This document shows positions 13,113 through 64,000 of a stretch of 64,000 bases of DNA, piece by piece. A model generated the notes under the pieces. That model had not been told where the DNA came from. It did not search any database and worked only from the letters and a program-made list of their open reading frames with translations. Every line of letters begins with the position of its first letter. Position 1 is the stretch's first letter. Source of the DNA: Macrostomum hystrix (taxonomy: Eukaryota > Animalia > Platyhelminthes); contig CATNEN010000001.1 of the NCBI GenBank assembly GCA_950097015.1, positions 3,410,001 to 3,474,000 of the forward strand, read 5' to 3'. A program made the position numbers and the translations under genes.

Positions 13113-13562
13113 TCACTGATTAGCGTTTTCAGTCGGCTCGGACCATTTGTGATGCGTTACACCCGGCGCCAGGTGTACTATTCGAACGTGTACAGCCTGA
13201 TATTTCTCATTCTTTGGCGGTATTGTAATCTTTTTAAATTCGACCTCGTCTCCTGGCACTGGTACGTACTCTTCGTCAATATCGGAGATGTGAAAAAAGA
13301 TTGGTTCGGGTTTCGACGCCAAGTTGTTGTCAGTGTCTGGCATTATAAATCCGTGACCGCGTTGTCGACAGAATGAGGCAACTTGGCCATGCTGGAGTGG
13401 TTCTTTGTGAGCTCGTTCGACCATAGATCTAGTTCGATGTCTCTTCTGCGGTACAGGATATGGAACAGCAAATTCAGCAATGCCGCCATCTGGAGTTACC
13501 GGACTCCTAACAATGTTGTTCTTAGCTGTTGGTCCAGTTGGGATTTCGTTGTCATTTGACAT
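13113..13562 (-). CDS. CARHSP1: Calcium-regulated heat-stable protein 1 / CSDC2-type cold-shock domain protein, single coding exon
   Basis: PYPVPQKRHRTRSMVERA, G.V..FCRQRGHGFI.P, IFFHISDIDEEYVPVPGDEV.F...IPPKNEKYQAVHVRIVHLAPGVTHHKW. The ATG at 13562 is preceded by a CAG acceptor. Confidence 0.92.
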   Translation of the reverse strand: MSNDNEIPTGPTAKNNIVRSPVTPDGGIAEFAVPYPVPQKRHRTRSMVERAHKEPLQHGQVASFCRQRGHGFIMPDTDNNLASKPEPIFFHISDIDEEYVPVPGDEVEFKKITIPPKNEKYQAVHVRIVHLAPGVTHHKWSEPTENANQ

Positions 13563-31627: not shown

Positions 31628-31695
31628 TTGCTGCAAGGACTACAAAGCAGACTGAAAGTCATCCCATGCCAACCTGTCCCAACTGATCCCAACAG

Positions 31696-31910
31696 AGGTG
31701 GACGGCGGCCCACTGCCGGGCCCGTACCGGTTCGCCCAGTTCCACATGCACTGGGGCGCAGCTGATCAGTTTGGCAGTGAGCATGCTCTGAATGGTCGCT
31801 TGTTCCCAGCCGAACTGCACATGGTGCATTGGAATGCCATCAAATATGCCAAGTTTGACCTGGCCGCAGCGCATTCCGATGGACTAACCGTGCTCGGAGT
31901 CTTTGTGCAG
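31696..31910 (+). CDS. Alpha-carbonic anhydrase exon 3 (zinc ligands)
   Basis: GGPLPGPYRFAQFHMHWG...GSEH...FPAELHMVHWN...DGLTVLGVF. Confidence 0.96.
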
Positions 31911-32107
31911 GTAAAAGTACAGTTTATAGGGGCTGGGAGAACATGTTTGTCAAGTGTTCGTATGTTCATAAATAATACCTATTCTTGAACTCCAAAAATG
32001 GGTCTATGAACATATCATTTTATTAAAAAGTTGTAAAAATACCCATTCATAAACTCCCAAAATTGATAATACTAATAACTAGAGTACTAGCAAGAGGGCT
32101 GCGGGCG

Positions 32108-44000: not shown

Positions 44001-44452
44001 CCACTCTCATCCCACTCTCATCCCTCTCTCATCCCACTCTCATCCCACTCTCATCCCACTCTCATCCCACTCTCATCCCACTCTCTTTTCCCACTCTTAT
44101 CCCACTGTCATCCCACTGTCATCCCACTCTCTCATCCCACTTTCATCTCACTGTCATCCCTCCCTCATCCCACTTTTATCCGACTCTCATCATCCCACTC
44201 TCCCATCCCACTCCATCATCCCACTCTCCCATCCCACTCCATCATCCCACTCTCCCATCCCACTCTCATCCCACTCCATAATCCCACTCTCCCATCCCAC
44301 TCCATCATCCCACTCTCCCATCCCACTCCATCATCCCACTCTCCCATCCCACTCCATCAATCCTTCGTGCCATGAGTCATCCGGGAAGCAATGTGATTGT
44401 TGGGCTGGGCTTTGGGATTGAGCATAGACTCATACTCAGCTCTGTTGTGAGA
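38088..44452. repeat. Higher-order satellite: 11-bp (ctcatcccact) arrays punctuated by a ~220-bp complex spacer every ~1.5 kb
   Basis: Spacer (caatccttcgtgccatgagtc...gcaaaggatcaggggc...ctaatacc) at ~39765, ~41417 and ~42880, with partial copies at ~38876 and ~44358. Confidence 0.95.
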
Positions 44453-44482
44453 TGGTAGGAAGGTTGAGTGGCCATTTCAAAC

Positions 44483-46082
44483 GAATCCTAGTCATTTCGT
44501 CAACTGCCATTTCGTCAACTGGACACATCGTCAACCCGTTCCCCGTATTGGTCGTTTCGTCAACCAACCAATAGGATACTTTCAAAGCTTGGTTATTTCG
44601 TCAACTGTTCAATGGGACGATGTCAACTTTTGGTCACTTCGTCAACTGCCAATAATACACGCCCCACATGAAACTTTTTTCCCTTCCGTTGCATGTTTAT
44701 TCAATGCAGCCCTCCTCCTTTCTCATTCTGGGCTTGGGACCAGACAATGGCGGAGTTACTGCCACAAAGATGCAGTTTGTATGGTAAAAAAGGAAAAATG
44801 CATTGCACAAAATCACAAAGATCACAAAGGCCACCACAAAGGTCACAATCAAATATAAAGCTGAAGACATGCGCAGAATGTACAGTACACTTATCCACTT
44901 ACGTACGTACTAGTCCTGCTGCTGCTGCTGCTGCTGCTGCACCTGTTGCCGCTGTCTGTACGCAAACTGGGGAACGTGGCCGAGGCGCGAGCACCGGAGC
45001 AGGAATGCACGGATTGACAACTCACCAGTGCGGTACTGCGCCCAGTACCGCTCCACGCTCGTCTGCAGACGCTCGTACCGTGCTCTGTGCTGGCGCTCCT
45101 GAGCACCCTGGTGCACCAGCGCGGCATGCACTGGCACAAGCTTGGCCTCCATGTGCAGCAGGCGCAGAAGTGGGTAGAGCGTCAACTGCACTCTCTCGGC
45201 CCGCTGCTTGAGTCTCCGGTGCCAGCCCTCGACCTCGTTGTTGGTACGTATTGACTGGCCGTACACACTGACTTCGTGGACTCCGTGGACCGGGTTCGAC
45301 AGCCAGGTTGCGCTCACGTACTCGGCCAGGTCCAGCAGCAGTGGCGCGTGCACACCAGCAACGATCTGCGCCAGACCCTCGCCCATGTGCTCGGCCGGCA
45401 GGTAGGGGAGCGCCATGAGCATGCGAGCGAAGTCGCGGGTGCCAGGATCTGTTAGATAGGCCTGCTGCAGGCCCAGGTGCTGCAAGCGACGAAATATCGC
45501 CTGCGCGAAGTGAAACCGGCAGCCCTGGAACCTTGCAGCCGGAAACACGGACCGTAAAGCCTGCCATGCCGCAGCTTCAAAGTCCATGACACAGACCTCC
45601 GGCGTCAAGTTGCCCAGTCCCTGTTTCAGTGCAGAGAAGACGGCAGTGTAGTCATTTACCGACTTAACTGACATTAGTGCGAAGGCCAGAGGAACCTGCT
45701 TGATTGTCGTTCCCTGTCGGATGTAGCAGTGCACCGAGTACAGCTGCTTGAATGGGGCATGAACGACATCGAAGTATTTCGGATTGGTTTGGCTGGTGGG
45801 GTTGTTGAGACATGATCGTTGAGGATTAAGACAAGGTGCTAATTCGCATTGAGAGATTGAGAGAACATGTGTCAACGCGAGGGGCGCTGGTTTAAGTAAA
45901 AGAGACAGGGTGCACGTTGTCAGCTTAAGAGAACAGGTGTCAGCGCGAGGGGCCCTGGTTCAAGTTACAGAGACAGGGCACGTTGTCAGTTTAGGGGGGG
46001 GGTGGCGAAGATGGATTGAGAATCCATCCATCATCCATCAACCAAGTTGACGAACTGGCAGTTGACGAAATGACCAGCACCC
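44483..46082 (-). mobile_element. Internally deleted MULE/Mutator-like DNA transposon
   Basis: Imperfect TIRs (gaatcctagtcatttcgtcaactgcca / tggcagttgacgaaatgaccagcaccc), 8-bp TSD tttcaaac (44475-44482 and 46083-46090), subterminal ttcgtcaac repeats and a transposase remnant. Confidence 0.9.
44910..45775 (-). pseudogene. MULE transposase, C-terminal portion (N-terminus and first catalytic Asp deleted)
   Basis: FKQLYSVH..VPLAFALM..K....Y..VF..L...VMDFEAA..QA...VFP.....GCRFHFAQA...RTNNEVEGWHRRL. The expected DGTF motif is replaced by unrelated sequence upstream of FDVV. Confidence 0.88.
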
Positions 46083-46274
46083 TTTCAAACTATAGCCCGC
46101 AGTGAGTCATCGGACAGGGAATGCTGACCCTCCCAAATCTAAGGGGCAGTTATTCTTTACAATGCGTTGGCAGGCTTGCTGGCTTTCTGAGCCGTGGAGC
46201 TCTAAATCAGTAAAACTGGAGGGTGTAGGCTGACTGGCTTTCCCGAAAATACACTGGGCAGATAGGAAATTCGG

Positions 46275-46982
46275 ATGAATTGAGATTAGAGTAGAGACAG
46301 ATAAGAGCAGAGTTGAGAGCAGAGTGAGATAAGAGTGGATTTGAGAGTAGAGTGAAGTAGGAGTAGAGTGAGTTGGGGGTAGAGTGAGATGAGAGTAGGG
46401 TGAGATGAGAGTAGGGTGAGATGAGAGTAGACTGGGATGAGATGGGAGTAGAATGAAATAAGAGTTGCGTGAGATGGGAGTAGAGATGAGAGTTGGGTGA
46501 GATGAGAGTAGAGTGAAATGGCGGTAGAGTGAGATGTGAGTAGAGTGAGATGGGGGTAGAGTGAGATGGGAGTAGCGATGAGAGTAGAGTAAGATGGGAG
46601 TATAGTGAGAAGAGAGTAGAGATAAGAGTAGAGTGAGATGAGAGTAGAGTGAGATGAGAGTAGAGTGAGATGGGGGGCAGAGTGAGATTGGAGTAGAGTG
46701 AGAAGAGAATAGAGATGAGAGTAGAGTGAGATGAGAGTATTGTGAGATGTGATTAGAGTAAAATGAGAGTAGAGTGAGATGAGAGTAGAGTGAGATGAGA
46801 GTATAGTGAGATGCGATTAGAGTAAAATGAGAGTAGAGTGAGATGGGGGTAGAGTGAGATGGGAGTAGAGTGAGAAGAGAGTAGAGATTAGAGTAGGGTG
46901 AGGTGAGAGTAGAGTGAGATGGGGGTAGAGTGAGATAGGGGTAGAGTGAGATGGGAGTAGAGATGAGAATAGGGTGAGATCT
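46275..46982. repeat. ~16-bp purine-rich minisatellite (gagtagagtgagatga)
   Basis: Degenerate tandem copies. Confidence 0.9.
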
Positions 46983-47914
46983 ACTCCAAATCTACAGGCT
47001 TTGGCGTCTTGCGCATGTTGAGCCGAAAGGAATTTATTTTAAAGCCGAAGAAATTTTTTCACTTTAGGTCTGTGAGGCTTTTAAATTAGGATAAGTTGTT
47101 AGGATATGTTTAGTAACTTTAAGTTGAGTCCGGCCCACTAACATCTCAGATAGCTGTTAAAGCTTAGACATGAAAAGCAACTTATTTTATTGAGCAGGAT
47201 TTTATAGGATTGTATTGGTTGTAAGTTTCCATGAAAAGTTCTTGTCGACAGTGAAATTCTTGCCTTAGGCTCTCTGAATGTGGCATTGAAAATGAATTGC
47301 CCAGCTGTGGTGGGACAGCCACTCAGCCAGTCTACGAGTGTACACTGCCACTGGGGTACGGGGGGTTTTGGCGAAGAGTTTTTCTCTCCCAGGGTGAACT
47401 GCCCTGCGCACATTGGGCCAGCCAGTCAGTCCTCTGCAGTAATAAGCCCTCTCCTCTCTTCTCTCCCCCAAGCTATCGATTTTCCTCGGGTGGGGGCAGG
47501 CAGGCAAGTCCATATTAGTCCCTCTAATATGGCCAGCCCTCCAGCCCCGGCATCTGCTTGCCTCTGTTGCAGTTGCAGTTAGTGCGCTCTTCATTGCCAG
47601 GTAAAGAATTTTCTGATTCTTGCTACGTTGCTAGTGTTTTTAACCGTGCATTCTACTCAACTATCAAGCTGAGAATGCTTGCTCATTTCTAAGCCACTTT
47701 GTCTTCGAGCAGAGTGGGCTAAATTTGTGCGAAGTGAGTTCTGAGCAGAATTACTTGACATCAGTTTTAGCTATTCGATGCTATGATAAAGGCAGTTTTG
47801 AATCGGCTGTTGATCTCTTGCTAAACATTTGCTAAGGACTATTAGGAACTAGCAGTTAAGTACAAATATATTTTGTAGGTCGCCAATATAAGCTGCACTG
47901 TTTTACATCCAGTG

Positions 47915-48320
47915 TCAGTCTATGGCCGCGGGCTAGCCGGCCTCAGCTCATGCGTTTATCGTGCGCCTAGTCAGGGTGCCCTCATGGTGAGGTGAGCTGG
48001 GCTAGCCGATCGCAGCTCCAGTCTATGGCCGCGGGCTAGCCGGCCCCAGCTCATGCGTTTATTATGCGCCTAGCCAGGGTGCCCTCATGGTGAGGTGAGC
48101 TGGGCTAGCCGATCGCAGCTCATGGGCCCAGCCCATGGGCCCAGGGTGCGCTCCTGGTGTGGGCCTCGGCAGTCTATGGCCGCGGGCTAGCCGGCCCCAG
48201 CTCATGCGTTTATTATGCGCCTAGCCAGGGTGCCCTCATGGTGAGGTGAGCTGGGCTAGCCGATCGCAGCTCATGAGCCCAGCCCATGGGCCCAGGGTGC
48301 GCTCCTGGTGTGGGCCTCGG
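47915..48320. repeat. GC-rich tandem triplication (units of ~103 and ~150 bp)
   Basis: cagtctatggccgcgggctagccgg recurs at ~47916, ~48019 and ~48169. Confidence 0.88.
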
Positions 48321-48371
48321 ATATGGGATAGGAAGGTGACGGGGGGGAGGAGGAGGGGGAGAGGTTGCCCA

Positions 48372-48625
48372 TGAGGGCGGATAGCTCAGTCAGTAAGGTG
48401 TCGGACTCTGGATCAGATGGTCCTGGGTTCGACTCCCGACCTAGTCTAGAACTATTCGTGCAGCCCTTGGCAAGCTGCTTTGCCCTGATGTGCACACAGT
48501 CTACTCAGCTGCAGATGAGTACCGACATTTCGTCGGGTAATAATAATTCTGGCTGGCGTGGAATAAAGCAGTTCTGTGCGGCAATTCTGTGGGGTTCGGA
48601 TGCTGCCGATATGTTTGGAAAAATA
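48372..48625 (+). mobile_element. tRNA-derived SINE, family C
   Basis: Head gggcggatagctcagtcagtaaggtgtcggactctggatcagatggtcctgggttcgactccc (A box and perfect B box), then cccttggcaag and ctactcagctgcagatgagtacc core-like motifs. Confidence 0.75.
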
Positions 48626-48651
48626 AATTCTTTAAGAGTTTTCTTAATTTA

Positions 48652-49612
48652 AGAGTTTTTCAAAACATATAGGCTATCCTACTGTATGTGATTCCTTTGG
48701 TGCTTCGAATGTACTGTATAGTGCTGATATTGATGTAAATCAGCGTAAAACCGCTTTTTTTCTTACTCAGCCGGATTAAGAAATGAGTAGGCTTATATGA
48801 TGTTCTTGTTGTTCTGCAAAACATATAATCATTAATTTAAATAAAAAATGAGTCGAACCAACGACCCGCAGTTATCAGGCTGACGTGCTACCAGTTTCAC
48901 CACTTGACATTGCCCATATACAACGAAGAATTACTATTTATTAGTATATTCTTTCGTTCGAATACTTTTTCAGAGTTTTTCAAAACATATAGGCTATTCT
49001 ATTGTATGTGATTCCTTTGGTGCTTCGAGTGTACTGTATAGTGCTGATATTGATGTAAATCAGCGTAAAACCGCTTTTTTTCTTACTCAGCCGGATTAAG
49101 AAATGAGTAGGCTTATATGATGTTCTTGTTGTTCTGCAAAACATATAATCATTAATTTAAATAAAAAATGAGTCGAACCAACGACCCGCAGTTGTCAGGC
49201 TGACGTGCTACCAGTTAAACCACTTGACATTGCCAGTTTACAACGAAGAATTACTATTTATAAGTATATTCTTTCGTTCGAATACTTTTTCAGAGTTTTT
49301 CAAAACATATAGGCTATCCTACTGTATGTGATTCCTTTGGTGCTTCGAGTGTACTGTATAGTGCTGATATTTATGTAAATCAGCGTAAAACCGCTTTTTT
49401 TCTTACTCAGCCAGATTAAGAAATGAGTAGGCTTATATGATGTTCTTGTTGTTCTGCAAAACATATAATCATTAATTTAAATAAAAAATGAGTCGAACCA
49501 ACGACCCGCAGTTATCAGGCTGACGTGCTACCAGTTTCACCACATGACATTGGCCAAATACAACGAAGAATTACTATTTATTAGTATATATTCTTTCGTT
49601 CGAATACTTTTT
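48652..49612. repeat. Three tandem 320-bp units, each containing a minus-strand tRNA-like segment and an AT-rich hairpin
   Basis: caaaacatataggct recurs at 48661, 48981 and 49301. Confidence 0.95.
48843..48915 (-). ncRNA. tRNA-like Pol III unit (copies also at ~49163-49235 and ~49483-49555); lacks the 3' acceptor strand
   Basis: The minus strand reads gtggtgaaactggtagcacgtcagcctgataactgcgggtcgttggttcgactcatttttt: A box, anticodon-like loop, B box GGTTCGACTC, then T6. Confidence 0.5.
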
Positions 49613-51588
49613 TGGCTGCAGGCTGCAGCTTGTGCTTTCTTATTTTAAGCAATGGCCATCGTAGCGATCAAATTCGCAACGCAATATTAGCAACGCAAGC
49701 AAATATATCGCGAGCTAGCGAATCGCTCCATTATCTAACGACGGGTCCAGCAGGTCCCCAAATTTTATCTGCAAAGCTTCAAAAACCAAAAGGGTGAACG
49801 TCAATATTACAAATTTATTACAAACTCAGCAAAAGTCAAAATTATTAGCACCCGTAACGAAAGTCATCGATTTATCGTTGCACCAAACATTCTACTTATT
49901 TTTGTCATTGCATGTAATCCATAAAGTTTTAAATAAAGACCAGCAAGGCAAAAATCATTATTTTTAAAGCATAAAAGTAACTTAAAAGAAAGGTTGAAGC
50001 GAAAATAGTTCGCTAAAAGATTTTTTTAAACACATACTGCATAAAAACGGCAAAACAGCGTTTAAATTTTGTAGGGTACGAAGTGCAATGCCTCACACCA
50101 GTATCTAAATGTTTTACTTTGTTTAGAGTTACATAAAGTTTCCGGAACATTTAACCTTTTCGACAGAAATCAACATGATAAATAATCGACCAATTTATAA
50201 ATCTAATTGATGCAAAGTCATTGCATTCTGTTGCAAAAGCAGTATAATCGCACGAGTTCAACCTACTGAAACATCGATTTAGTTAATTCATCTACAAATA
50301 TTATATATTTTTAATAAAAGTGTCTGAGCTTTCGTGTTCTGCTACAAAGTAGGGAAACCGTAAGACTTTCTGGTATATTAGGTCTTAATTTAATAATTCT
50401 CGAAAAACCAAGGTATTCCAAATAATTAGCTACGAAACACATTATTTTCCTTTCTTGAAGATCGGCTCGATATTACCCGCAACTTACGTATGTAAACCGT
50501 AACGTACTCGTAGCGTTTGAGTTTAAAAAAATAAAATCGTAATAAAGGTATAGGCTACTTAATACTGCTTTGAAAAAACAAATAATTATGTTCTTAGACA
50601 TATACATAAAGAAGGCTCTGCAGATTTTTTTGGCGCGGTTTAAATAATTTCAGATGCATGTTCGTCGGAGTTGTCCGCCATGTTGTTTTTAGCTTTTTCA
50701 AATTTTAATTTTGAACTGAATTTTAATTAATTTAGTAATTTAATTTTCTCTTTGAATTCAACTGAAAGTGAAAGACAGGTAAATCGGGACAAAAAAGTAC
50801 AAGATTGTACCAATTGCAATCATTCCACATTACTGTTACTTTTTCTAGATTATTGCCACTTTGGTAGCTAATTTCGTTCTTCGTAAATCGTAATTAAGGT
50901 TAAAAAGGAAAATATTTGTATTGTTTACTTCACTCTTCACTTAGTTTTGGACAAATCAGAGTCATTTGCACAAGGTAATTAAAAACTCGATAAATGTCTA
51001 AACAATGTCAGTTGGAAAATAACATATGTCGCTATATGGCAAAATTACATGGTTAATATGATGTAATATAATACTCTAGATAGCTAGTATTGAATAGGAA
51101 ATATTATCTGACTATCTTTGGCAGGTTAGAAACTAGTTAACTCGGCAGTAAACCAGTACTATAGCTAGTGCCTATAAGCATTTACTCATATTTAGTTAAC
51201 ATTGAAGATGGGTTAATCCAAAATTTTGTTAGAGGTTGTGCCAGTGTGTATTAAATTAGAAACAGTTGTCCGACTATAATATTCACTTTTATTTATTAAG
51301 TTCTGCTGCTAGTTTCTTTGCATTTCTTGCTTAACAGTGTACCAAGCTCTGCAACTTTTTATGAAGCAACAGTCACTAATTTCATTTGGTCTTTAGACCT
51401 AGCCTCCTAGCCTACTTCCAGAGTCAAAAAGGTGGCTCTGTGTGCCAGAAAGAAATTATAAACAATGTAATAAGTGACATGCACCACCAATATAAGTAAC
51501 TTTAACATTGAGTCAAGTAGGCTTTGGTAAATAGTAAATAAAGTAAATAGTTAATAGGGCAAGATCTCAAAAAAACTAATGCATACTC

Positions 51589-52022
51589 GGCAATGTTTTA
51601 CTTCCGTTCGTTATATTATTTTTTCGTTTGAATTGACATGGCTTTGCCGTGACTTGACACTTGGATCTATGTCTATGGCAAAATCTGGCAAATATGGGGG
51701 AACAGGAAGCTTAGGCACAGAAATTCTGCAGCTGAAGATTTTGTGAAGGCCAAGCTGCGTCAAATGCATGGCACGAATGCTGCTCTATTCGAAAGCCACC
51801 TCAAAGAATTCTTATGGCGCTGTCTATACCCCAAGAATAGCTTCGGTGCCCTCCTCTACTGGATTAGGCACTTACCCGGTTTGAAAGAAGAAAGACTGAC
51901 CAAGACTTTTCAGAACTGTCTGATCAAACTACAGACTTATTGTTACCGTTAAACTTGTTTTTGTCGTTATCTGTCATTTGCAAATGAAAAAATAATATAA
52001 CGAACGGAAGTAGAACATTGCC
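51589..52022 (+). mobile_element. Non-autonomous Merlin (IS1016/ISXO2-like) DNA transposon
   Basis: TIRs ggcaatgtttacttccgttcgttatattatttt / aaaataatataacgaacggaagtagaacattgcc. Perfect 8-bp TSD gcatactc (51581-51588 and 52023-52030). The internal remnant KLRQMHGTNAALFESHLKEFLWR matches the Merlin transposase C-terminus. Confidence 0.88.
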
Positions 52023-52628
52023 GCATACTCTTTGCACATAAAGGCTTCTTTCCAGTGGACCTTGAACTTAAGATCAATATTTATATCGTAAATAGTGAAA
52101 TTGAAATCTTGAAATCAATCACTTGAGAAGGTATTCGACTGAGATTAGTGGCAATCCATTGGAGGATTAGAGAAGTCCATGCTGGTATCAGTATCAGACA
52201 GGCTGATCATCTAGGCAGAATAGCTGCAGCTGGACACTGCAGCATGACAGTCTGGCCCTGGCAAAGCTGAGCAAACTGCCACCCCAAGTCTGCCAATCTT
52301 TGTCACATTCCATGGAGTCCATGGGTGGCAGTAATGTGTTAATTTGTGAGAGTGAGAAAAAGGGATTTGTGTGCAAATTTTTAAGTAAATGTTCAATTCT
52401 TTATATTCAAGCAAGTGTATAGAAATGACGCCCAAGTGCAGGTCAGCAATCTCCACAGACTGTAGTTACATGGCCACAATACTTGTGGGAATATATGTTG
52501 AATATAAGTGCTATGATTTCATTATAGAATATATAAAACTTTATAGTATTAAATAGAAAACAGTTGTCTGTCTACAATATTAAATACTGTAAACCAATGA
52601 TTATAAATTACTTTCTCATTTCCAGACA

Positions 52629-55076
52629 ATGTATCGCGGCATCGAACTGAAGCGTGTTGTCAAAGCTACACTGCAAACTGGCTGTCGTGGGCGACCCAGA
52701 AAGATTAAGACAATCATTAGCGGCCGAAATCGAGGCTCAACATCTCGGCGTCCTGTGTCTGAAACTACTCCTGTTCCAGTGGAAGCTAGCACCGAGAATG
52801 ATGTCGGTATGCCTGAGTCTTTTGCTCCTACAGTAGAAGATGTTGAATGGGTAGATTTTGACAGCTTTGCTGAGAAATACAGAGGTAGTTACGAGAAGCA
52901 TTTTCTCTTAAATCTGTGTTCCTCTTGCTATGAGCACGAAGGTGTATATCGATGTGTTACTTGTCGACTTAGCTTATGTGCCAGCTGTAAGAATGAGACG
53001 CATAAAAAGTTTTCAGCCCACAAGTTTCTCATATGGAATAAGGAGAGTCTAATGTTTCAGGAACTGGATGCTACTCACGATGCTTTTGAAATGTTTTGCT
53101 GCGCTTCTAGTAAATTGAATCTGAATGTCTGTGCGGCTACAAAAGTTGACCTTATAGATCTGGCTGGAAGCGTAAAGGTCATTTTTATTACCTGCGACTC
53201 CTGTGATCTTATTGGTGCACTCCTTTCTCAAGGGTTCTTCCCTTGTTGCGAAGGGTCAAAGCCTGATTCAGATGGGTATGCATTCTTTTCTTTTACCTTT
53301 TTGTCCCTGCTAGACAGTTTGTGTATGACTGGGCAGTTGCCTGTTCACAGAGCGGTCAGTACACTGCTCATTGGGCCAACTCTGGGACAAGGTACATATA
53401 ATTTGGCTCTTGTAAAAAGCACTTATCAACGCATTCAACGACATGATGTTTTGCTGCGGTTTCGCCACCTGCAAATGGCCTCAGCAAAATGGCCAAATAA
53501 TTGTCTTCTCTGTCCAGATAATCACGCTGTGCGCAAAACTGTTGTCTGTGCAGATGCTCTATTTGGTTGGCAGCGCTTTAAAGCCAGGGGGCGTACACAA
53601 CTGGAAATACCATCAGATGGTCGTCCATTACCTACGCCGCTTGTCTATGTAGATATTAAAGCGGATGTGCCAAAAAATCGAGCAGAGGAACAGAATTGTC
53701 CTAATTGGAAGGCCGGTGCTCATGAACCATTAAGCCGTGAGCAGAGACATGATGTCACGGGTTTCTTTGGATTATTCTGTCGTCACAATCGCCTTTTGTG
53801 TGGCTCAAATATCACAACTGGTGGAGAAAAGTTTTGCTACCTGGAACAGTGCCTTGAACACTTTCTGCGAAACGTCAAAGTGTCTAAGGAATTACTTGTC
53901 GTATATGACGTGGGTAAGTTTATTATTATTTTATAAAATGCATACAATCTATGAAATACTGTTGCTTGTGTACAGTTATATGACAACATGACTTACTCTT
54001 TATCCCAATTCACAGGCTGTCGCGTATCCAGCCGGGTTAAATCCGCTATTGCGAAGTCTGGTGCCAACATTCAAGCGAGTAGCTGTGCAATAAACGCTTT
54101 TCATGCTCTTGGTCACCTGCCCAGTTGTCAAAAAAAGTTTTCTGTTCGCGTTACTCCAGGCGCAGGTCTATGCGATGGAGAGAATACTGAGCGAGCCTGG
54201 TCTCAACTCAGGCCGTTCGGTAAGTTTTTAAAGTACATGCGGAAAGACCGACGAGCACAATACATGGCGCATATTCTATACTTCTTTAATGCACAACAGC
54301 TTCTTAGCGCTTCTGGGTGGTTTACACAACGTATTAAGCTTATGGTAGGTGCGGGAAAAAGCATTCTAAGTGAACTAAAAGAGCTACAAAGCCAGTCTGC
54401 GATTTTGCAGCACTCGGGGGTCCGAAATGACAGTCTGGTCATCTCTGAGGATGAAATTTTGGATTTAGGCTCCCAATGGTATGAAGATTCCCTCCGAGTA
54501 GCTGTACACAACTCGGAAGATGATATCCTATGTGAGCTACGCGCTCTTGCAGTGCACAGAGATCATTGGAGTAAACAGGTTGGTAAGTCAGTTGGCCAAA
54601 GTCAAACCAGAATGTGCTTGCGAAAGGTTAAAAGTTATGCATCCGACATGAAAAAACTCTACGCTCGTCTTCCAATTGAAGACAGAGCTTCTTTCGATGA
54701 ATATAAAAAACCGCGTAGTGCGAAATATGAACATTTGTCTGGAACCGACCTTTCCATCCGATTTCGTCAGCGGGCTATAGACGTCAGTAACAAATATAAA
54801 CGCCTAAAAGAAGAAGCGCATATTATTTCAGATGAGTGGGTTGACCTTCAGGTTAATTTGCAGAGCCTCTGTGATGACTTAGCGAATCAGCCGGGCTTAG
54901 CCGCTCAATTTCGGGAATTGTTTAGAAGACTGCTTGAAGATGTTGCAAGTAAAAGCGTGACTGATGCTGTAAAATATCTTCTTGCGAATAAATTCTCCCT
55001 CAGCACACTGAGTCAGAGCGCTAATGAAGCGGTTGCTTCAGAAGATTCGGAGTCTTCTGATAGCGACTCCGATTAA
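52629..55076 (+). CDS. KDZ (Kyakuja-Dileera-Zisupton) transposase with AT-hook and CxC cysteine cluster; exons 52629-53913 and 54016-55076 (~781 aa)
   Basis: RGRPRK AT-hook; CSSC..YRCVTC..LCASC...H...H..W and G.V....CDSC....LL.QGFFP CxC region; CLLCP..VCADALF; GFFGLFCRH...GEKFCY; VYDVG|C restored by a phase-1 GT-AG intron; NAFHALGH..CQ.......PGAGLCDGENTERAWSQL. Confidence 0.9.
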
Positions 55077-55148
55077 GTATCCAACCAGTGTACTGATGAT
55101 TCCACCGTTACTTGTGTTTTTAATTGAAGTCAAGCGCTGCCTTGTAAA

Positions 55149-55826
55149 GTCACTCTGCACCTACTTTTGTGTGGGTGCTGTGAAGCGTTAAGTTTAAGAT
55201 CGCTAAAATTAATACCATTAAGCCCAAAATTTGGACACATTTCTTTCAACTAGCAAATTTTTTGCAGGTCACTTTGCACATGCAATACAATGTGCTGTGA
55301 AGCGTTAAGTTTAAGAACGCTAAAATTAATACCAGTAAGCCCAAAGTTTGGACACATATTTCTTTCAACTAGCAAAATATTTACAGGTCACTTTGCACAT
55401 GCAATTCAATGTGCTGTGAAGCGCTACATTTTAAAGCGCTATGAGCCCATGTGTCAGCCTTCTCGCGGCGGACTCGTTGAGCGCGAATAAAATCTGCTAA
55501 TTACCGTGCGCTGCCAATCTTACCGTGCATGTTTGCACTATCCAGCGGACTGGCAGTGTACTTACGTTAGCTGTTTTTATTCGTGGGACTAATGACACTA
55601 TTAAATTCGTTCATTTATCAGCTTTTCCGTTCAATTCCGTTTTATTATTATTATATAGCTCACAGTTTCATTGTCTGTCAAATAAATGGAGGGGCTCCTA
55701 AACAGTGTTTCTCGTTCTTATTTTTTCATTGCTTGCCGTGCCTGATAAACATGTTTTCCTTTTTTAGCATTTACATACTTGCGCCTATATACGTCACCGA
55801 TTTCAGCGAAACGCAGGCAACTTAAA
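55149..55826. repeat. Intergenic spacer repeat R, copy 1 (with an extra degenerate ~120-bp subunit)
   Basis: Near-identical to 56993-57553 and 58410-58852. Confidence 0.95.
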
Positions 55827-55874
55827 TAAACTCTTTAAAAAATCAAAATTCAGATTTCAAATTCAAAAGACAGC

Positions 55875-56887
55875 ATGCCCACTGATAAGCTCGATTGTCC
55901 GTTATGTCTTCCTGGTTTATCTGCCTATTCGGCCAGACCTGACAGGCTCGCTCTGCATATTGAAACGCATCATCCAAACGCGAAAGGGAAGACGGAATGC
56001 ATCATTCAATATCTACGTTGGTCGAAGAAGGCCGATGCAAAATTGTGCCAGCTATGCGATACATTCTATGTACATTTGCGGCAGCACTATAAGCTGATTC
56101 ACACCATCGAATTCCGGCGACTTAACACTTTGCTGACAGGTCAACCAGCCATGCGACTCGCGCGAAAGCGTGGTGTTAAACGTTTTGGTGAAATATTCTG
56201 GTGGTTTACTTCCAATCAGCCGTTGCCAAACTATCCGTCCTCAGATGGCGACTGTGTTGGAAAGCTGGAAGAACAAAGGTAATTAATTTGTGAAGGGCAT
56301 GTCACGATCTCATTTAAAGCTTAGTTACGTAAAATGCAAACTGCCTGTGCCATCTGTATTTTCTAAGTCTTGTCAACACTTCCCACAGGCACTGCGAATC
56401 TTCTGCTGGCCAACGATCATGCATAGATGTCTACAGGAAAAGTTCAAATTTCGTCCCAGCCAAGGTTTTAGTGAAGCCTTCTGGTGAGAAGGGTCTCGGT
56501 ATTTTTGCTGGTGAACTAATTAGAGCTGATTCATTCGTGTGCTTCTATGGTGGCACCGTAATATCTAGAAAACAAGGACTCGCCAGAGAGCAGGAGAGGG
56601 CATCTAAAGGCGAGTCACCTTGTTTTGCGTTTTTCTTTTTTTATGGCTCCCAATCGCTTTGCGAAGATGCTACTGATAGTTTTTCCCTTGGTCGGTTTAT
56701 TAATCACAGTCGGTTGACTCCAAATCTAATGCCAAGGGCGATACCACCATGTAAAGAAATCGGACGGAACGTCTGCAGGATCGCTTTTTTTGCTATTCGG
56801 GACATTCTAGAAGGGCAAGAATTGCTCTTCGATTATTCTGAAACTGACGAAGAGTGTCTAAAGAGGTTTCCCTGGCTGCAATCTTAA
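55875..56887 (+). CDS. Double C2H2-like zinc finger plus SETD8/PR-Set7(KMT5A)-like SET methyltransferase; exons 55875-56278 and 56389-56887 (300 aa)
   Basis: CPLC..HIETHH and CQLC..HYKLIH. A phase-2 intron (GTAATT...CCACAG) joins in frame to KGLGIFA..FVCFYGG..RE....CFAFFF.Y....CEDAT...LGRFINHSR..PNL...IAFFAIRDILEGQELLFDY......FPWL. The PWL tail is characteristic of SETD8. Confidence 0.88.
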
Positions 56888-56992
56888 AAGTTCAAAAAAT
56901 TGTACCAACTAGTCACTGCTAATCATTTTGAATTTGTTGCACATGCGTCAGACAAATTTCTTCAAAACTTGTCGCATAAAACATTACAGCAG

Positions 56993-57553
56993 GTCACTCT
57001 GCACCTACTTTTGTGTGGGTGCTGTGAAGCGTTAAGTTTAAGAACGCTAAAATTAATACCAGTAAGCCCAAAGTTTGGACACATATTTCTTTCAACTAGC
57101 AAAATATTTACAGGTCACTTTGCACATGCAATTCAATGTGCTGTGAAGCGCTACATTTTAAAGCGCTATGAGCCCATGTGTCAGCCTTCTCGCGGCGGAC
57201 TCGTTGAGCGCGAATAAAATCTGCTAATTACCGTGCTCTGCCAATCTTACCGTGCATGTTTGCACTATCCAGCGGACTGGCAGTGTACTTACGTTAGCTG
57301 TTTTTATTCGTGGGACTAATGACACTATTAAATTCGTTCATTTATCAGCTTTTCCGTTCAATTCCGTTTTATTATTATTATATAGCTCACAGTTTCATTG
57401 TCTGTCAAATAAATGGAGGGGCTCCTAAACAGTGTTTCTCGTTCTTATTTTTTCATTGCTTGCCGTGCTTGATAAACATGTTTTCCTTTTTTAGCATTTA
57501 CATACTTGTGCCTATATACGTCACCGATTTCAGCGAAACGCAGGCAACTTAAA
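56993..57553. repeat. Intergenic spacer repeat R, copy 2
   Basis: Near-identical to copy 1. Confidence 0.95.
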
Positions 57554-57594
57554 AAAAACTTTAAACTTCAAACTGTAAACACACAAAACTCATC

Positions 57595-58329
57595 ATGCCC
57601 AACAAACACGCGAAAGTGTCCTGTCTTGTCTGTTCCAATTGGACTGGTCGATCCTACATGCTTTGGAGGCATTGCGAGAAAAGGCACCCCGCTCTGGAGG
57701 ATGACAGGATTCAGGCGATGATTGACTTCGCGAAGGCGACTTCAAAAGCGAAGCCGGTGTGTCTCTGTCCGATATGCGGGGCTCTGATTTCTCACCAAAG
57801 AGCGCATTTTAAGAGATGCCACGTACCTGAATATGGCTCTACATACCGCCGCAAAGCCCTCTCGGGTCGTGCGGCTGTCCTGAAATTACGCGAATCAGGT
57901 TCGCGGCGTGTAGCAGAACTTCACAAACTTGCTACAGAAGAAAAGCATCCACTCCAATACATGGAACTTGAGTTCGCTGCTAGTCAGCTATCTATTCTGG
58001 TTGAGATGTACAAGGATATCGGCGAGGTACAAATTACATCAGCAACTAGCCAAGAGACGAGTGCGTCAACAAAACTTCCCGCAGAACAGCAGCAGCAGGA
58101 AGAGCGCTGCAACTCTTCTGAAGGTGCTCCTAAAAGTCCTAAACCTACGCCAGAAACTCATCGAGTTCCAGCTAAAATCTGTCGAAACCCATTACCATTT
58201 GTGATTCCTCCAAGAGTCCCTTATTGCGTCAAACCCTTACCGCCTATTGTCTTGCGTAAATCTGCTACCAACTTGACCCGATATAACCCGAAAATTCCCA
58301 CCTCGTCTCCCATAAAAATTGCTACCTGA
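57595..58329 (+). CDS. Double zinc-finger protein with a Pro/Ser-rich C-terminus; paralog of the 55875 gene N-terminus
   Basis: CLVC..HCEKRH, CPIC..HFKRCH, and LSGRAAVLKLRESGSRRVAEL aligning with LTGQPAMRLARKRGVKRFGEI. Confidence 0.75.
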   Translation: MPNKHAKVSCLVCSNWTGRSYMLWRHCEKRHPALEDDRIQAMIDFAKATSKAKPVCLCPICGALISHQRAHFKRCHVPEYGSTYRRKALSGRAAVLKLRESGSRRVAELHKLATEEKHPLQYMELEFAASQLSILVEMYKDIGEVQITSATSQETSASTKLPAEQQQQEERCNSSEGAPKSPKPTPETHRVPAKICRNPLPFVIPPRVPYCVKPLPPIVLRKSATNLTRYNPKIPTSSPIKIAT

Positions 58330-58409
58330 GGTCTTCCTGTTGGAACAAAATACCATACCACCCCTATCCCATGGAAAAATTGGTATATCGACAGAGCCAA
58401 TTACAGCAA

Positions 58410-58852
58410 GTCACTCTGCACCTACTTTTGTGTGGGTGCTGTGAAGCGTTAAGTTTAAGAACGCTAAAATTAATACCAGTGAGGCCAAATTTTGGATACA
58501 ATTCATTCAACTAGCAAAATATTTACAGATCACTTTGCACATGCAATTCAATGTGCTGTGAAGCGCTACGTTTTAAAGCGCTATGAGCCCATGTGTCAGC
58601 CTTCTCGCGGCGGACTCGTTGAGCGCGAATAAAATCTGCTAATTACCGTGCGCTGCCAATCTTACCGTGCATGTTTGCACTATCCAGCGGACTGGCAGTG
58701 TACTTACGTTAGCTGTTTTTATTCGTGGGACTAATGACACTATTAAATTCGTTCATTTATCAGCTTTTCCGTTCAATTCCGTTTTATTATTATTATATAG
58801 CTCACAGTTTCATTGTCTGTCAAATAAATGGAGGGGCTCCTAAACAGTGTTT
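58410..58852. repeat. Intergenic spacer repeat R, copy 3 (3' end diverged)
   Basis: Near-identical to copies 1 and 2 up to ...ctcctaaacagtgtttc. Confidence 0.95.
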
Positions 58853-59126
58853 CGCGTTTTCGTTTTTTAATTGCTTGTTTTTTAGATGCGCTTTCTTTCT
58901 GCTCATTAGTTGGCTGTGCAGGGAACAACTAGGACAAATGGAGATAGATGTGCATTTGAGAATAGACTGCCTGCTTTATACAATTATATGCATGGCAGAT
59001 CAATGTCCTTATTAGCGTTTATATATTAGCGTTCACGCCTTCATTTAGGGTCTAGCTTTAATTGTCAACGTTTCAAACTTCAATCTCGAATAAATTTCAG
59101 GCCAGCATCACTTCCATTGAAAGTTG

Positions 59127-59660
59127 ATGACACCTCCCAACATTCACGCCGCGATTACGTGTCTTCAGTGCCACTAGAGTGGCAGGGCATCAGGTTTTAA
59201 ACAGCATTGCCGCGGAGCTCATCCGGACCTATCTGAAAGGCGAATCGACGCCAACCTTCGCTACTGTCGCCTACAACATAAGCTGGAGTTGTCTCCTATT
59301 TTTTATCTCTGTCCATATTGCTCTACTATCACTTCGGGATTCGATATGCACATGCTCATTCACAATCGCGGGAGAAGAGGAGGCGATAGAATCATCATCA
59401 CGACTGAGGACTTCAAAGCTGCTAACCTTGCTGCATTAAGTTTCATTGACGAGCTACGCAACATCGCTGTTGGTGGTAAAACTCCTGCCAACGAAATATC
59501 GCCGGCTCTTCCAGCAGCTGGTCAACCTACGAGTGCTCATTCAGTTGATTTAAATCCACAGGTGCCTGGGGCCCAAGACTACAGTTGTAATCAACGCTCC
59601 GCTGCAGCTTTAAGCTACAATTCTGATGTCAACAGGATGACGTGCGCGATGTCAACATGA
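59127..59660 (+). pseudogene. Third double-zinc-finger paralog with an in-frame TAG at codon 17 (59175-59177)
   Basis: MTPPNIHAAITCLQCH*SGRASGFKQHCRGAHPDLSERRIDANLRY...LCPYCSTITSGFDMHMLIH aligns with CLVCSNWTGRSYMLWRHCEKRHPALEDDRIQAM...LCPICGALISHQRAHFKRCH. Confidence 0.72.
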
Positions 59661-60079
59661 TGACGTGCGCGAGCATTCAACACAATGGAAATGACGATCC
59701 ATACAATTTTTTAGGCGGTGTTTCTGGTCTTTCAACCGTTGTGACCAATCTTTGAAGAAGCATCTTGCTAATGATATTTTAGCTTTTATAACTATTTGCA
59801 CAATTAAAGGTACGTGGCTACGCACTTCTACGCCTTTAGCCTTGTCTAATGTCATTTTTCAATTCCCTCCAGTCGTCCAAGGCGTTTTGTTGTTATGCGA
59901 ACTCGGCCAATCTGACTTCATAATTGCTTCATATGCGTTCATATGCATACAAGTGTGAATGCTCATATGCGTGTGTACACCTTTCGTGTCTGCTTGCCTG
60001 CAATCCTACTTGTGCATGTATTTGACTTACCTATAGTCATTACACTTAGCTAGAGTAATTTAGCCCAGGTGTGGCAACA

Positions 60080-60716
60080 ATGGTCAGAGGAGAGCTAGAG
60101 TCAAACTGTTCAGAATATGTTCCGATGACTAAATTATTCAGTTTTCCCTGGTAGTCATGCAATTTCTTGGATGGTCAGAGGAGAGCTAGAGTCAAACTGT
60201 TCAGAATATGTTCCGATGACTAAATTATTCAGTTTTCCCTGGTAGTCATGCAATTTCTTGGATGGTCAGAGGAGAGCTAGAGTCAAACTGTTCAGAATAT
60301 GTTCCGATGACTAAATTATTCAGTTTTCCCTGGTAGTCATGCAATTTCTTGGATGGTCAGAGGAGAGCTAGAGTCAAACTGTTCAGAATATGTTCCGATG
60401 ACTAAATTATTCAGTTTTCCCTGGTAGTCATGCAATTTCTTGGATGGTCAGAGGAGAGCTAGAGTCAAACTGTTCAGAATATGTTCCGATGACTAAATTA
60501 TTCAGTTTTCCCTGGTAGTCATGCAATTTCTTGGATGGTCAGAGGAGAGCTAGAGTCAAACTGTTCAGAATATGTTCCGATGACTAAATTATTCAGTTTT
60601 CCCTGGTAGTCATGCAATTTCTTGGATGGTCAGAGGAGAGCTAGAGTCAAACTGTTCAGAATATGTTCCGATGACTAAATTATTCAGTTTTCCCTGGTAG
60701 TCATGCAATTTCTTCA
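60080..60716. repeat. 91-bp tandem repeat, 7 essentially identical copies
   Basis: atggtcagaggagagctagag recurs at 60080, 60171, 60262 and so on to 60626. Confidence 0.96.
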
Positions 60717-61085
60717 ATGGTCGTGCTCCCTTGCAAACGAGCAGCGGAGTGAGAGGAGAGAGTTCTGAAGTTCTGAACGCGTTTGACAATGATAAAATAT
60801 CAAACTCTAATACCTGCTTTCTTTATGCTAACTGTGCATGCACTGTATGTGTTTTTACGTGAGGGTCTGTACTTTGTTCAATTAATGTTTCTGTCTAACT
60901 AGGACTTTTCACCAATTCTTTTCCGTGTCAATCTTCAGGGAAAATACATAAGCTAATTTATCAAAACATATCAGCGCATCTCATTGGCAAAAATTGTGCC
61001 GCACAGGCACGGCATAGGTGACCTGCTGCAAGGTATACTGACTAAAATTATTATTATGTTATTATTATTACTTCTTTCTTGGAAT

Positions 61086-61318
61086 CACAGGGTGAGGTGA
61101 CAGAGAAGAGGGTGAGGTGACAGAGGAGAGAGTGGGGTGACAGAGAGGAGAGAGTGAGGGCACAGGAGAAAGTGAGGGCACAGAGGAGAAAGTGAGGGCA
61201 CAGAGGAGAAAGTGAGGGCACAGGAGAAAGTGAGGGCACAGAGTGGAGAAAGTGAGGGCACAAAGGAGAAAGTGAGGGCACAGAGTGGAGAAAGTGAGGG
61301 CACAGAGAGGAGAAAGTT
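61086..61318. repeat. ~20-bp purine-rich minisatellite (gagggcacagaggagaaagt)
   Basis: Tandem copies. Confidence 0.9.
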
Positions 61319-61429
61319 AACTTTGATGAATTTCGATGGGATTTGATTCCCCGTATTCTGGGATAGACGTAGAAGCGATCCCTGTCGAAATCCGGGGTCA
61401 ATAAGTAAGCCTGCGGCGTCGCATCACAC

Positions 61430-63950
61430 AGACTATACTTAATTATTACTATTGTAGCCAGATTTATAAACTTGAACTGGAGCTTGTGGGCACCTATTGC
61501 CGTTTAGGAAAATTCAAGAAACCAACAATTGCAGTGCCACGCTTGGCCTCAACTACATGATTTTCGCACTACAAAGACTATACTTAATTACTATTGTAGC
61601 CCAATTTATAAACTTGAACTGGAGCTTGTGGGCACCTATTGCCGTTTAGGAAAATTCAAGAAACCAACAATTGGTGCCACGCTTGACCTCAACTACATGA
61701 TTTTCGCACTACAAAGACTATACTTAATTACTATTGTAGCCAGATTTATAAACTTGAACTGGAGCTTGTGGGCACCTATTGCCGTTTAGGAAAATTCAAG
61801 AAACCAACAATTGCAGTGCCACGCTTGGCCTCAACTACATGATTTTCGCACTACAAAGACTATACTTAATTACTATTGTAGCCAGATTTATAAACTTGAA
61901 CTGGAGCTTGTGGGCACCTATTGCCGTTTAGGAAAATTCAAGAAACCAGTAATTGGTGCCACGCTTGGCCTCAACTACATGATTTTCGCACTACAAAGAC
62001 TATACTTAATTACTATTGTAGCCCAATTTATAAACTTGAACTGGAGCTTGTGGGCACCTATTGCCGTTTAGGAAAATTCAAGAAACCAGTAATTGGTGCC
62101 ACGCTTGGCCTCAACTACATGATTTTCGCACTACAAAGACTATACTTAATTACTATTGTAGCCCGATTTATAAACTTGAACTGGAGCTTGTGGGCACCTA
62201 TTGCCGTTTAGGAAAATTCAAGAAACCAACAATTGCAGTGCCACGCTTGGCCTCAACTACATGATTTTCGCACTACAAAGACTATACTTAATTACTATTG
62301 TAGCCAGATTTATAAACTTGAACTGGAGCTTGTGGGCACCTATTGCCGTTTAGGAAAATTCAAGAAACCAACAATTGCAGTGCCACGCTTGGCCTCAACT
62401 ACATGATTTTCGCACTACAAAGACTATACTTAATTACTATTGTAGCCAGATTTATAAACTTGAACTGGAGCTTGTGGGCACCTATTGCCGTTTAGGAAAA
62501 TTCAAGAAACCAACAATTGCAGTGCCACGCTTGGCCTCAACTACATGATTTTCGCACTACAAAGACTATACTTAATTACTATTGTAGCCAGATTTATAAA
62601 CTTGAACTGGAGCTTGTGGGCACCTATTGCCGTTTAGGAAAATTCAAGAAACCAACAATTGCAGTGCCACGCTTGGCCTCAACTACATGATTTTCGCACT
62701 ACAAAGACTATACTTAATTACTATTGTAGCCAGATTTATAAACTTGAACTGGAGCTTGTGGGCACCTATTGCCGTTTAGGAAAATTCAAGAAACCAACAA
62801 TTGCAGTGCCACGCTTGGCCTCAACTACATGATTTTCGCACTACAAAGACTATACTTAATTACTATTGTAGCCAGATTTATAAACTTGAACTGGAGCTTG
62901 TGGGCACCTATTGCCGTTTAGGAAAATTCAAGAAACCAACAATTGCAGTGCCACGCTTGGCCTCAACTACATGATTTTCGCACTACAAAGACTATACTTA
63001 ATTACTATTGTAGCCAGATTTATAAACTTGAACTGGAGCTTGTGGGCACCTATTGCCGTTTAGGAAAATTCAAGAAACCAACAATTGCAGTGCCACGCTT
63101 GGCCTCAACTACATGATTTTCGCACTACAAAGACTATACTTAATTACTATTGTAGCCAGATTTATAAACTTGAACTGGAGCTTGTGGGCACCTATTGCCG
63201 TTTAGGAAAATTCAAGAAACCAACAATTGGTGCCACGCTTGGCCTCAACTACATGATTTTCGCACTACAAAGACTATACTTAATTACTATTGTAGCCAGA
63301 TTTATAAACTTGAACTGGAGCTTGTGGGCACCTATTGCCGTTTAGGAAAATTCAAGAAACCAACAATTGGTGCCACGCTTGGCCTCAACTACATGATTTT
63401 CGCACTACAAAGACTATACTTAATTACTATTGTAGCCAGATTTATAAACTTGAACTGGAGCTTGTGGGCACCTATTGCCGTTTAGGAAAATTCAAGAAAC
63501 CAACAATTGCAGTGCCACGCTTGGCCTCAACTACATGATTTTCGCACTACAAAGACTATACTTAATTACTATTGTAGCCAGATTTATAAACTTGAACTGG
63601 AGCTTGTGGGCACCTATTGCCGTTTAGGAAAATTCAAGAAACCAACAATTGCAGTGCCACGCTTGGCCTCAACTACATGATTTTCGCACTACAAAGACTA
63701 TACTTAATTACTATTGTAGCCAGATTTATAAACTTGAACTGGAGCTTGTGGGCACCTATTGCCGTTTAGGAAAATTCAAGAAACCAACAATTGGTGCCAC
63801 GCTTGGCCTCAACTACATGATTTTCGCACTACAAAGACTATACTTAATTACTATTGTAGCCAGATTTATAAACTTGAACTGGAGCTTGTGGGCACCTATT
63901 GCCGTTTAGGAAAATTCAAGAAACCAACAATTGGTGCCACGCTTGGCCTT
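61430..63950. repeat. 140/142-bp tandem satellite, ~18 copies
   Basis: Near-identical units in two length variants (aattggtgccac vs aattgcagtgccac). Confidence 0.97.
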
Positions 63951-64000
63951 AAATGCATGCGTTTCGCAGCCAGTTTCCCAGTTTCCCCAGTTTCTCCAGT

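Follow-up and report, generated by a model that had tools for sequence, protein, structure and literature searches.

The window analysed here, a stretch of 64,000 nucleotides of Macrostomum hystrix DNA, holds a gene cluster in which an intact KDZ transposase gene is followed by three genes that share a finger module, lie behind near-identical spacers and, like the transposase gene, are trans-spliced. The four + strand genes are, in order, the KDZ transposase, a gene that joins two finger motifs to a SET domain (finger-SET), gene 3 and gene 4. Finger-SET is a real, transcribed and spliced gene. Our preferred reading, which we offer tentatively and at a little under even confidence, is that finger-SET is cargo of an operon-like KDZ transposon and methylates H4K20, with Phe282 allowing the dimethyl state. 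A sequence-only reading of the locus had proposed a transposon-linked SETD8 enzyme retooled by a Phe at the Phe/Tyr switch; of this, the spliced fusion, the SETD8-type domain, the Phe at the position of human Y334 and the link to a transposase stood, whereas retooling through Phe was not borne out, and mobility, capture from the host KMT5A, sequence targeting by the fingers and the catalytic product are putative.

Finger-SET consists of exon 1 (55875-56278, +), which encodes a twin-finger module (residues 1-124) and the start of a linker, and exon 2 (56389-56887, +), which encodes the SETD8-type SET domain (Pfam SET, E 1.3e-15) and a C-terminal PWL; the two join in frame to encode 300 amino acids. 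The intron between them (56279-56388, +) is 110 nt long with GT..AG ends, and in an unspliced transcript the frame of exon 1 reaches a stop within it. Eight public sequencing runs (X2 and X4-X10) were compared as contigs over the region 49620-60075. Exactly these 110 nt are skipped in contigs of five of the eight (X4, X5, X6 and X8, from one study, and X7, from a second), and an X2 contig (55797-56484) crosses the intron without gaps; X9 and X10 gave short pieces only, with none listed across the intron. Since the transposase intron is also skipped in X4, X5, X6, X8 and X7 and a spliced leader is present, we take X4-X8, for which the run type is unrecorded, as RNA. X2 is taken as genomic because it crosses both the finger-SET and the transposase introns unbroken. 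In X4-X8, two or three GT..AG introns are spliced out and the 5′ leader is shared, and the finger-SET frame is open in every run that covers the gene. The spliced ORF that had been proposed from the sequence is therefore confirmed by the skipped intron, and its predicted content, two C2H2-like fingers joined to a SET domain with RFINHS, ELLFDY and PWL, is all found in the 300-residue protein.

The transposase gene (52629-55076, +; exons 52629-53913 and 54016-55076) encodes 781 amino acids with no internal stop and ends 799 bp upstream of the finger-SET start codon, on the same strand. Both exons match Pfam PF18758 (E 1.3e-9 and 3.7e-16), and the N-terminal part is B-box-like and CxC1-like, both below the Pfam cut-off (CxC1, E 0.035). 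The leader is attached at 52625 in X4, and 5′ exons of the gene lie near 50691-50974 in X6, X7 and X8.

Gene 3 (57595-58329, +) encodes 244 amino acids, a twin-finger module with a low-complexity tail, and gene 4 (59127-59660, +) encodes a diverged twin-finger module with a short tail; both have leader contigs in X4, X5, X6 and X8. When a profile built from Macrostomum lignano modules alone was run against the six-frame translation of the window, gene 3 scored E 1.3e-13 and gene 4 E 1.1e-4, and with a fuller profile none of 100 shuffles reached the score of either gene. Gene 4 contains a TAG at 59175-59177, where X2, X5, X6, X7 and X9 read G at 59176, giving a Trp codon. The gene 3 contig of X4, X5, X6 and X8 reads the leader, nine spacer letters and then 57667 (57534-57668), a GC..AG-type skip that would delete the start codon and first finger; this contig differs from the window at six places.

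One spacer of 480-577 nt lies ahead of each cargo gene, and the three are 96-97% identical by self-BLAST. Copy 1 (55264-55839, +; about 577 nt) ends in the trans-splice acceptor 55805-55806 and has an extra partial unit (55147-55322, +); the repeat begins about 70 bp past the transposase stop. Copy 2 (56989-57565, +; acceptor 57532-57533) and copy 3 (58400-58877, +; about 480 nt) were delimited by self-BLAST and alignment. As the modules behind them are only about 27-35% identical where aligned, the spacers must have undergone homogenisation or recent replacement. All three contain an imperfect inverted repeat of 36 bp around a 28-nt loop (55484-55583, 57211-57310 and 58626-58725), and Rfam gave no match within 46900-61500, spacers included. 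An X5 joint (57162-58583) was not accepted as a deletion, since it falls within the spacer repeat.

The spliced leader is joined to all four genes, at 52625, at 55806 (in X5, X6, X8 and X7), at the gene 3 acceptor and at 59100. Its sequence agrees with the 3′ portion of the SL printed for M. lignano in PMC8629364, the four acceptors all fit the [T/C]TNCAG motif given there, and the gaps from stop to acceptor (730, 646 and 771 bp) lie below the 1-kb operon threshold of the same source. The genes are on one strand, each is SL trans-spliced and neighbors are less than 1 kb apart, as in an SL operon. One X7 contig joins a donor in the transposase gene (about 54218-54220) to an acceptor at 55853, out of frame; this joint into the finger-SET leader region, seen in a single contig whose shorter arm is 29 letters long, is a weak hint of one precursor RNA over the genes. 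It is also possible that each spacer acts as a promoter of its own instead. The leader brings an AUG that reads in frame into the transposase; ahead of genes 3 and 4 the frames that start from it run for just 15 and 9 codons. Before finger-SET it opens a 97-codon, out-of-frame reading frame (55807-56097) that overlaps the gene start and could reduce translation.

Is the four-gene unit mobile? The proposed link to a transposon gained an operon-like cluster, a common spacer and the X7 splice joint; a search for terminal repeats, a target duplication and an empty site found none within 44000-64000, and the ends of the element may fall outside 49620-60075, the stretch compared with the runs. A pair of candidate ends at 52302-59745 (8-bp repeat and 6-bp inverted ends) was rejected as chance, having its like in 10 of 100 shuffles, and is also crossed by unbroken high-depth X2 contigs. 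Among the matches listed, no loose ends marked several insertion sites for the unit. Depth of X2 contigs, which is no copy number and has no single-copy control, is 1122-1159 for the transposase, 490-497 for finger-SET, 609 for gene 3 and 986 for gene 4, and minor X2 variants occur at depths of 80-156 against 490-1160. These depths would fit several copies, about half of them without the two middle genes; as its depth is about half that of the transposase, finger-SET may be missing from about half of the copies. We think that the unit is probably mobile now or was so recently.

Several other features of the window deserve mention. The transposase 5′ intron contains a 435-bp non-autonomous element (51588-52022) that has inverted ends of 43 bp and is flanked by an 8-bp target duplication; the element's right end has 27 different flanks in X2, and an X4 contig is without it. 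On either side of the four-gene unit lie tandem arrays, with repeats of 151, 320, 91 and 142 bp (48019-49612, 60080-60722 and 61419-63968), which are possible subterminal parts of the element. A 349-residue open frame on the - strand (44910-45959) is, judged by eye, presumably a MULE-type transposase. Positions 1-48000 contain host-like exons among many tandem arrays. Some of these we take, again by eye, to encode an amidohydrolase (774-1268, -), a WD40 protein (7637-9397, -), a cold-shock-domain protein (13113-13586, -) and part of a carbonic anhydrase (exon at 31656-31988, +).

The module that the three cargo genes share is basic and contains two unusual fingers. In finger-SET, finger 1 (C-x2-C-x16-H-x4-H, residues 8-33; 55896-55973, +) and finger 2 (C-x2-C-x9-H-x4-H, residues 58-76; 56046-56102, +) supply eight Cys2-His2 zinc ligands that are invariant in all six aligned modules. 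The canonical 12-residue spacing is absent, the spacings being 16 and 9 with 24 residues between the fingers, and none of four modules matches the canonical C2H2 pattern. Pfam detected no finger family in the finger-SET protein and, in the relative P0005, a weak zf-C2H2 below cut-off. A search of 1.84 billion representatives with the module gave seven matches, four from M. lignano, one from an anchovy and two that are probably spurious; P0002 and P0007 were discarded as likely spurious repeat matches. Finger 2 resembles the repeated fingers of the anchovy protein, P0004, which is uncharacterised. An Atlas search with the module gave no usable match (best 0.78). Within the searches run, the module thus appears to be lineage-restricted. 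Since it accompanies two types of chromatin enzyme and also stands by itself, it is best read as a putative address or docking tag, for which the partner could be DNA or protein.

All informative homologues of finger-SET are M. lignano predictions. An alignment-based search returned five proteins from 7994 candidates scored; P0028, a SET protein that comes from a plant and belongs to a different family, was set aside, and scans of viral contigs and metagenome contigs found no related locus. Homologue searches with exon 2 at near or longer lengths were empty, but as they missed P0001 these blanks count for nothing; no KMT5A sequence of the host or of another animal came out of the homologue searches. 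The closest relative, P0001 (Mlig001681), is 59% identical and colinear over 300 residues without gaps. Together, the leader and these homologues point to a Macrostomum-type host, and the level of identity to one that is probably a species other than M. lignano. Identity is 62% in the finger module, 34% in the linker and 63% in the SET part, from which it follows that module and SET domain are both under constraint; this pattern of conservation argues for a working protein. P0005 (Mlig022522g3) is more distant with the same finger-SET architecture. P0003 (Mlig033988g1 cluster) carries the twin-finger module ahead of PINIT and SP-RING domains, as a PIAS-type SUMO ligase, and belongs with P0008-P0012 to an M. 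lignano cluster of six PIAS-type proteins with an N-terminal module. P0001, P0005 and P0003 are uncharacterised database predictions; the gene identifiers of the M. lignano relatives turned up in one row only of PMC12896417 and in none of the supplementary material searched of PMC5816591 and PMC5730564. Identical copies of P0001 are encoded on four contigs, and within one transcript cluster they bear gene numbers g4 and g17. Under the naming scheme given in the available text of PMC5730564, this would be in keeping with a multi-gene unit present in about four copies, although duplicated chromosomes in the M. lignano assembly, to judge from the available part of PMC8629364, could also be the source of four identical copies.

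Ninety-eight sequences of solved structures matched the SET domain, and the top 14 were PDB 4LDG and 13 SETD8 constructs (E 3.5e-19 to 8.9e-12), followed by EZH2 as the next family (3.2e-11). SETD8 constructs thus outrank other SET families, as the sequence-only assignment to SETD8 would have it. Against human SETD8 the best E value is 1.2e-14 for finger-SET and 2.3e-26 for P0005, which bridges the two. An ESM Atlas structural search with P0001 placed H4K20/KMT5A clusters in its first two rows, with TM under 0.5, and structure predictions were of low confidence (mean pLDDT 35.0 and 35.8). Finger-SET has the GxG, YxG, RxxNHS and ELxYDY/ELxFDY-type motifs and, as in SETD8, a C-flanking helix with Trp (PWL) in place of a Cys post-SET. 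In the alignments with the structure sequences, finger-SET retains the counterparts of human K226, Y245, R258, E259, C270, F275, R295, N298, H299, Y336 and W349. At the positions that contact the H4 tail, R258, E259 and C270 are kept and H347 is changed to Phe. The aromatic strand reads CFAFFF in finger-SET against CYMYYF in SETD8 (Y271, Y273 and Y274 to Phe), and further departures are R228 to Leu and G337/D338 to Ser/Glu. None of the three finger-SET proteins contains a PIP-box pattern. The H347-to-Phe change is shared with P0001 and has been reported to raise substrate affinity, according to the part of PMC3741215 available.

The switch residue is Phe282 (codon TTC, 56828-56830, +), and because it is not Tyr we file finger-SET as SETD8-like rather than as a canonical SETD8. 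The region around it aligns letter for letter with the ELLFDY of PDB 3F9W, which is SETD8 Y334F (PMC3529403, as excerpted), and ELLF had thus been placed correctly at the Y334 position. The codon is identical in six of the eight runs (X2, X4, X5, X6, X8 and X9), and we therefore exclude an assembly error; the X7 contig has one difference, at a position that is unlisted, and X10 has no piece listed over the codon. Y334F is reported to convert SET8 to a dimethyltransferase (PMC6214909, available text), and Cryptosporidium SET8, with a natural Phe, to give an H4K20me3 signal in vitro (bioRxiv 2022.03.06.483160, available text). Given these two precedents, a dimethyl product is a reasonable prediction for Phe282.

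The same preprint, in its available part, describes ELxFDY as the consensus across SET families, with Phe the common state, and at the switch codon a single base separates Phe from Tyr. Tyr is retained by both finger-SET relatives from M. lignano, P0001 and P0005. By parsimony, then, the finger-SET fusion would be older and the Phe a recent, single-base change on the finger-SET branch that does not define the family, and the Phe would be independent of that in apicomplexan SET8. The proposal that a captured SETD8 was retooled through the Phe switch is not upheld, since the same architecture occurs with Tyr in both relatives. From these comparisons, Phe282 is probably late tuning or tolerated drift, and the older event would be the placing of a Tyr-type SET8 behind the finger module.

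If finger-SET is transposon cargo, as we prefer, how might it serve the element? A single precursor RNA would span the four genes and be resolved by trans-splicing. By way of a DNA or protein partner, the finger module may recruit the SET8-type enzyme to chromatin of the element itself, where the enzyme would methylate H4K20, up to me2 in the Phe version. The mark might then keep the element transcribed or steer repair at sites of excision or insertion. Recruitment and the use of the mark are the weakest steps of this scheme. We give the predicted enzyme somewhat better than an even chance of being active on H4K20 and consider it fairly likely, should it be active, that it adds more than one methyl. 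Since host Suv4-20 enzymes require a monomethyl substrate (PMC3874154, as excerpted), they would be circumvented by an enzyme that goes straight to me2. H4K20me2 is bound by 53BP1 and Orc1 (PMC3741215 and PMC3874154, as excerpted), through which a choice of repair at breaks may be a possible benefit.

Other explanations can be envisioned. The cluster could be a host locus, in which a family of twin-finger proteins with SET8 or PIAS fusions occupies an ordinary operon together with a domesticated, immobile KDZ gene. Termini and a TSD, for which 44000-64000 was searched in vain, would then not be expected, the 5′ exons and 1.65-kb intron of the transposase gene are host-gene-like, and the module also occurs on PIAS-type proteins. 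Moreover, trans-splicing affects 30% of the genes of M. lignano, and 15% lie in operons (PMC8629364, available text), so that operon form alone is no proof of a transposon. We nevertheless regard a host locus as unlikely, as the transposase is intact and without an extra host domain, the near-identity of the spacers against the divergence of the genes, together with the uneven DNA depth, points to turnover among copies, and the minor X2 variants would fit several copies. A different doubt concerns the enzyme. Its SET domain may have been weakened or re-aimed, leaving an inactive scaffold or decoy, or a methyltransferase for non-histone targets such as a lysine of the transposase or of a host silencing factor, with Phe282 as drift without effect. 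The distance from human SETD8, which P0005 approaches much more closely, would agree with this, as would the altered aromatic strand, the changed residues after the catalytic Tyr, the absent PIP-box pattern and a Phe that is common across SET families and one base from Tyr. Set against it are the kept cofactor, catalytic and H4-contacting R/E/C positions, the identity of the SET part to that of P0001 and a frame open in all covering runs, and we consider this explanation improbable.

Two readings go further than ours. Finger-SET might be a sequence-specific DNA-binding di- or trimethyltransferase, a writer selected for its Phe and acting at chosen sites in the manner of PRDM9 or VANC. A basic module with eight invariant ligands is what such an enzyme would have, the homogenised spacer repeats could serve as its binding sites, and the module is joined to a second type of chromatin enzyme as well. 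But there are only two fingers, spaced and linked unlike canonical ones, the relatives that share the module keep Tyr, and genes 3 and 4 are modules without an enzyme, all of which make this quite unlikely. It is also conceivable, though to our minds quite unlikely, that the KDZ elements of Macrostomum are trans-spliced operons with an array of interchangeable cassettes. Each cassette would contain the addressing module, either bare or fused to SET8 with Tyr or Phe or to a PIAS-type SUMO ligase; recombination between the homogenised spacers would add and remove cassettes, and the module would bind the spacers, so that an element could write its own H4K20 methylation.

If the cargo reading is true, an animal DNA transposon would have its own histone H4K20 writer, and the theme of chromatin-enzyme cargo, known in fungi and oomycetes, would reach an animal in which transgenesis and RNAi are available. 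The natural Tyr/Phe pair, 59% identical and colinear, would let the product switch be studied without engineered mutants, and the finger module, apparently lineage-specific, has two different chromatin enzymes as fusion partners. Should the unit be immobile or the enzyme dead, this is an odd, minor, lineage-specific gene cluster. The weight of the finding lies in the operon and the swappable module more than in the Phe.

Full-text searches of the open literature brought up no account of the twin-finger module or of KDZ elements that carry SET8, in Macrostomum or elsewhere; a Repbase entry for the family may exist. The nearest known enzyme is SETD8/PR-Set7/KMT5A (PDB 1ZKK, 3F9W and 5HQ2), which shares the SET motifs, the i-SET R/E/C positions and the PWL helix. 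Finger-SET differs in its twin fingers, Phe at 334 and 347, altered aromatic strand and transposase neighbor; whereas SETD8 has an N-terminal PIP degron and no fingers, finger-SET is the reverse, with fingers and no PIP-box pattern. A natural Phe at the switch, as in finger-SET, is found in Cryptosporidium CpSET8 and Toxoplasma SET8, and the best structure match, PDB 4LDG, which we take to be CpSET8, also has ELLFDY. Unlike finger-SET, the apicomplexan enzymes are protist host genes without a finger module or transposon, and animal Set8 is said to have been acquired by apicomplexans (PMC3598677, available text).

The idea of a sequence-addressed chromatin modifier, in which the addressing is putative here, is shared with PRDM9 and plant VANC. 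PRDM9 combines a PR domain with a long, canonical C-terminal finger array. VANC, an anti-silencing protein cited in the available text of PMC12730594, is unrelated to finger-SET in sequence. Oomycete transposons offer a closer parallel in cargo: HarbingerS and MuDR elements, of superfamilies other than KDZ, carry SET genes (as cited in PMC12730594), and proto-Helentrons carry a Clr4-like SET domain (PMC4067079), where that of finger-SET is of SETD8 type. The available parts of these two sources describe no finger fusion of an oomycete transposon SET, and that of PMC12062965 names only SETMAR and F-box-KDZ fusions. Closest in element are the fungal KDZ transposons (Kyakuja, Dileera and Zisupton), which combine the transposase with a separate TET/JBP chromatin-enzyme gene thought to serve the element, and have ends marked by a 7-8 bp TSD, with TIRs in Zisupton and none in Kyakuja (PMC12730594, available text). 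Compared with these, the Macrostomum unit, for which a search of 44000-64000 found neither ends nor TSD, has a histone methyltransferase as cargo, an animal host and the form of a trans-spliced operon. Already known are SET cargo in oomycetes, chromatin cargo in the KDZ elements of fungi and a natural Phe-SET8 in Cryptosporidium.
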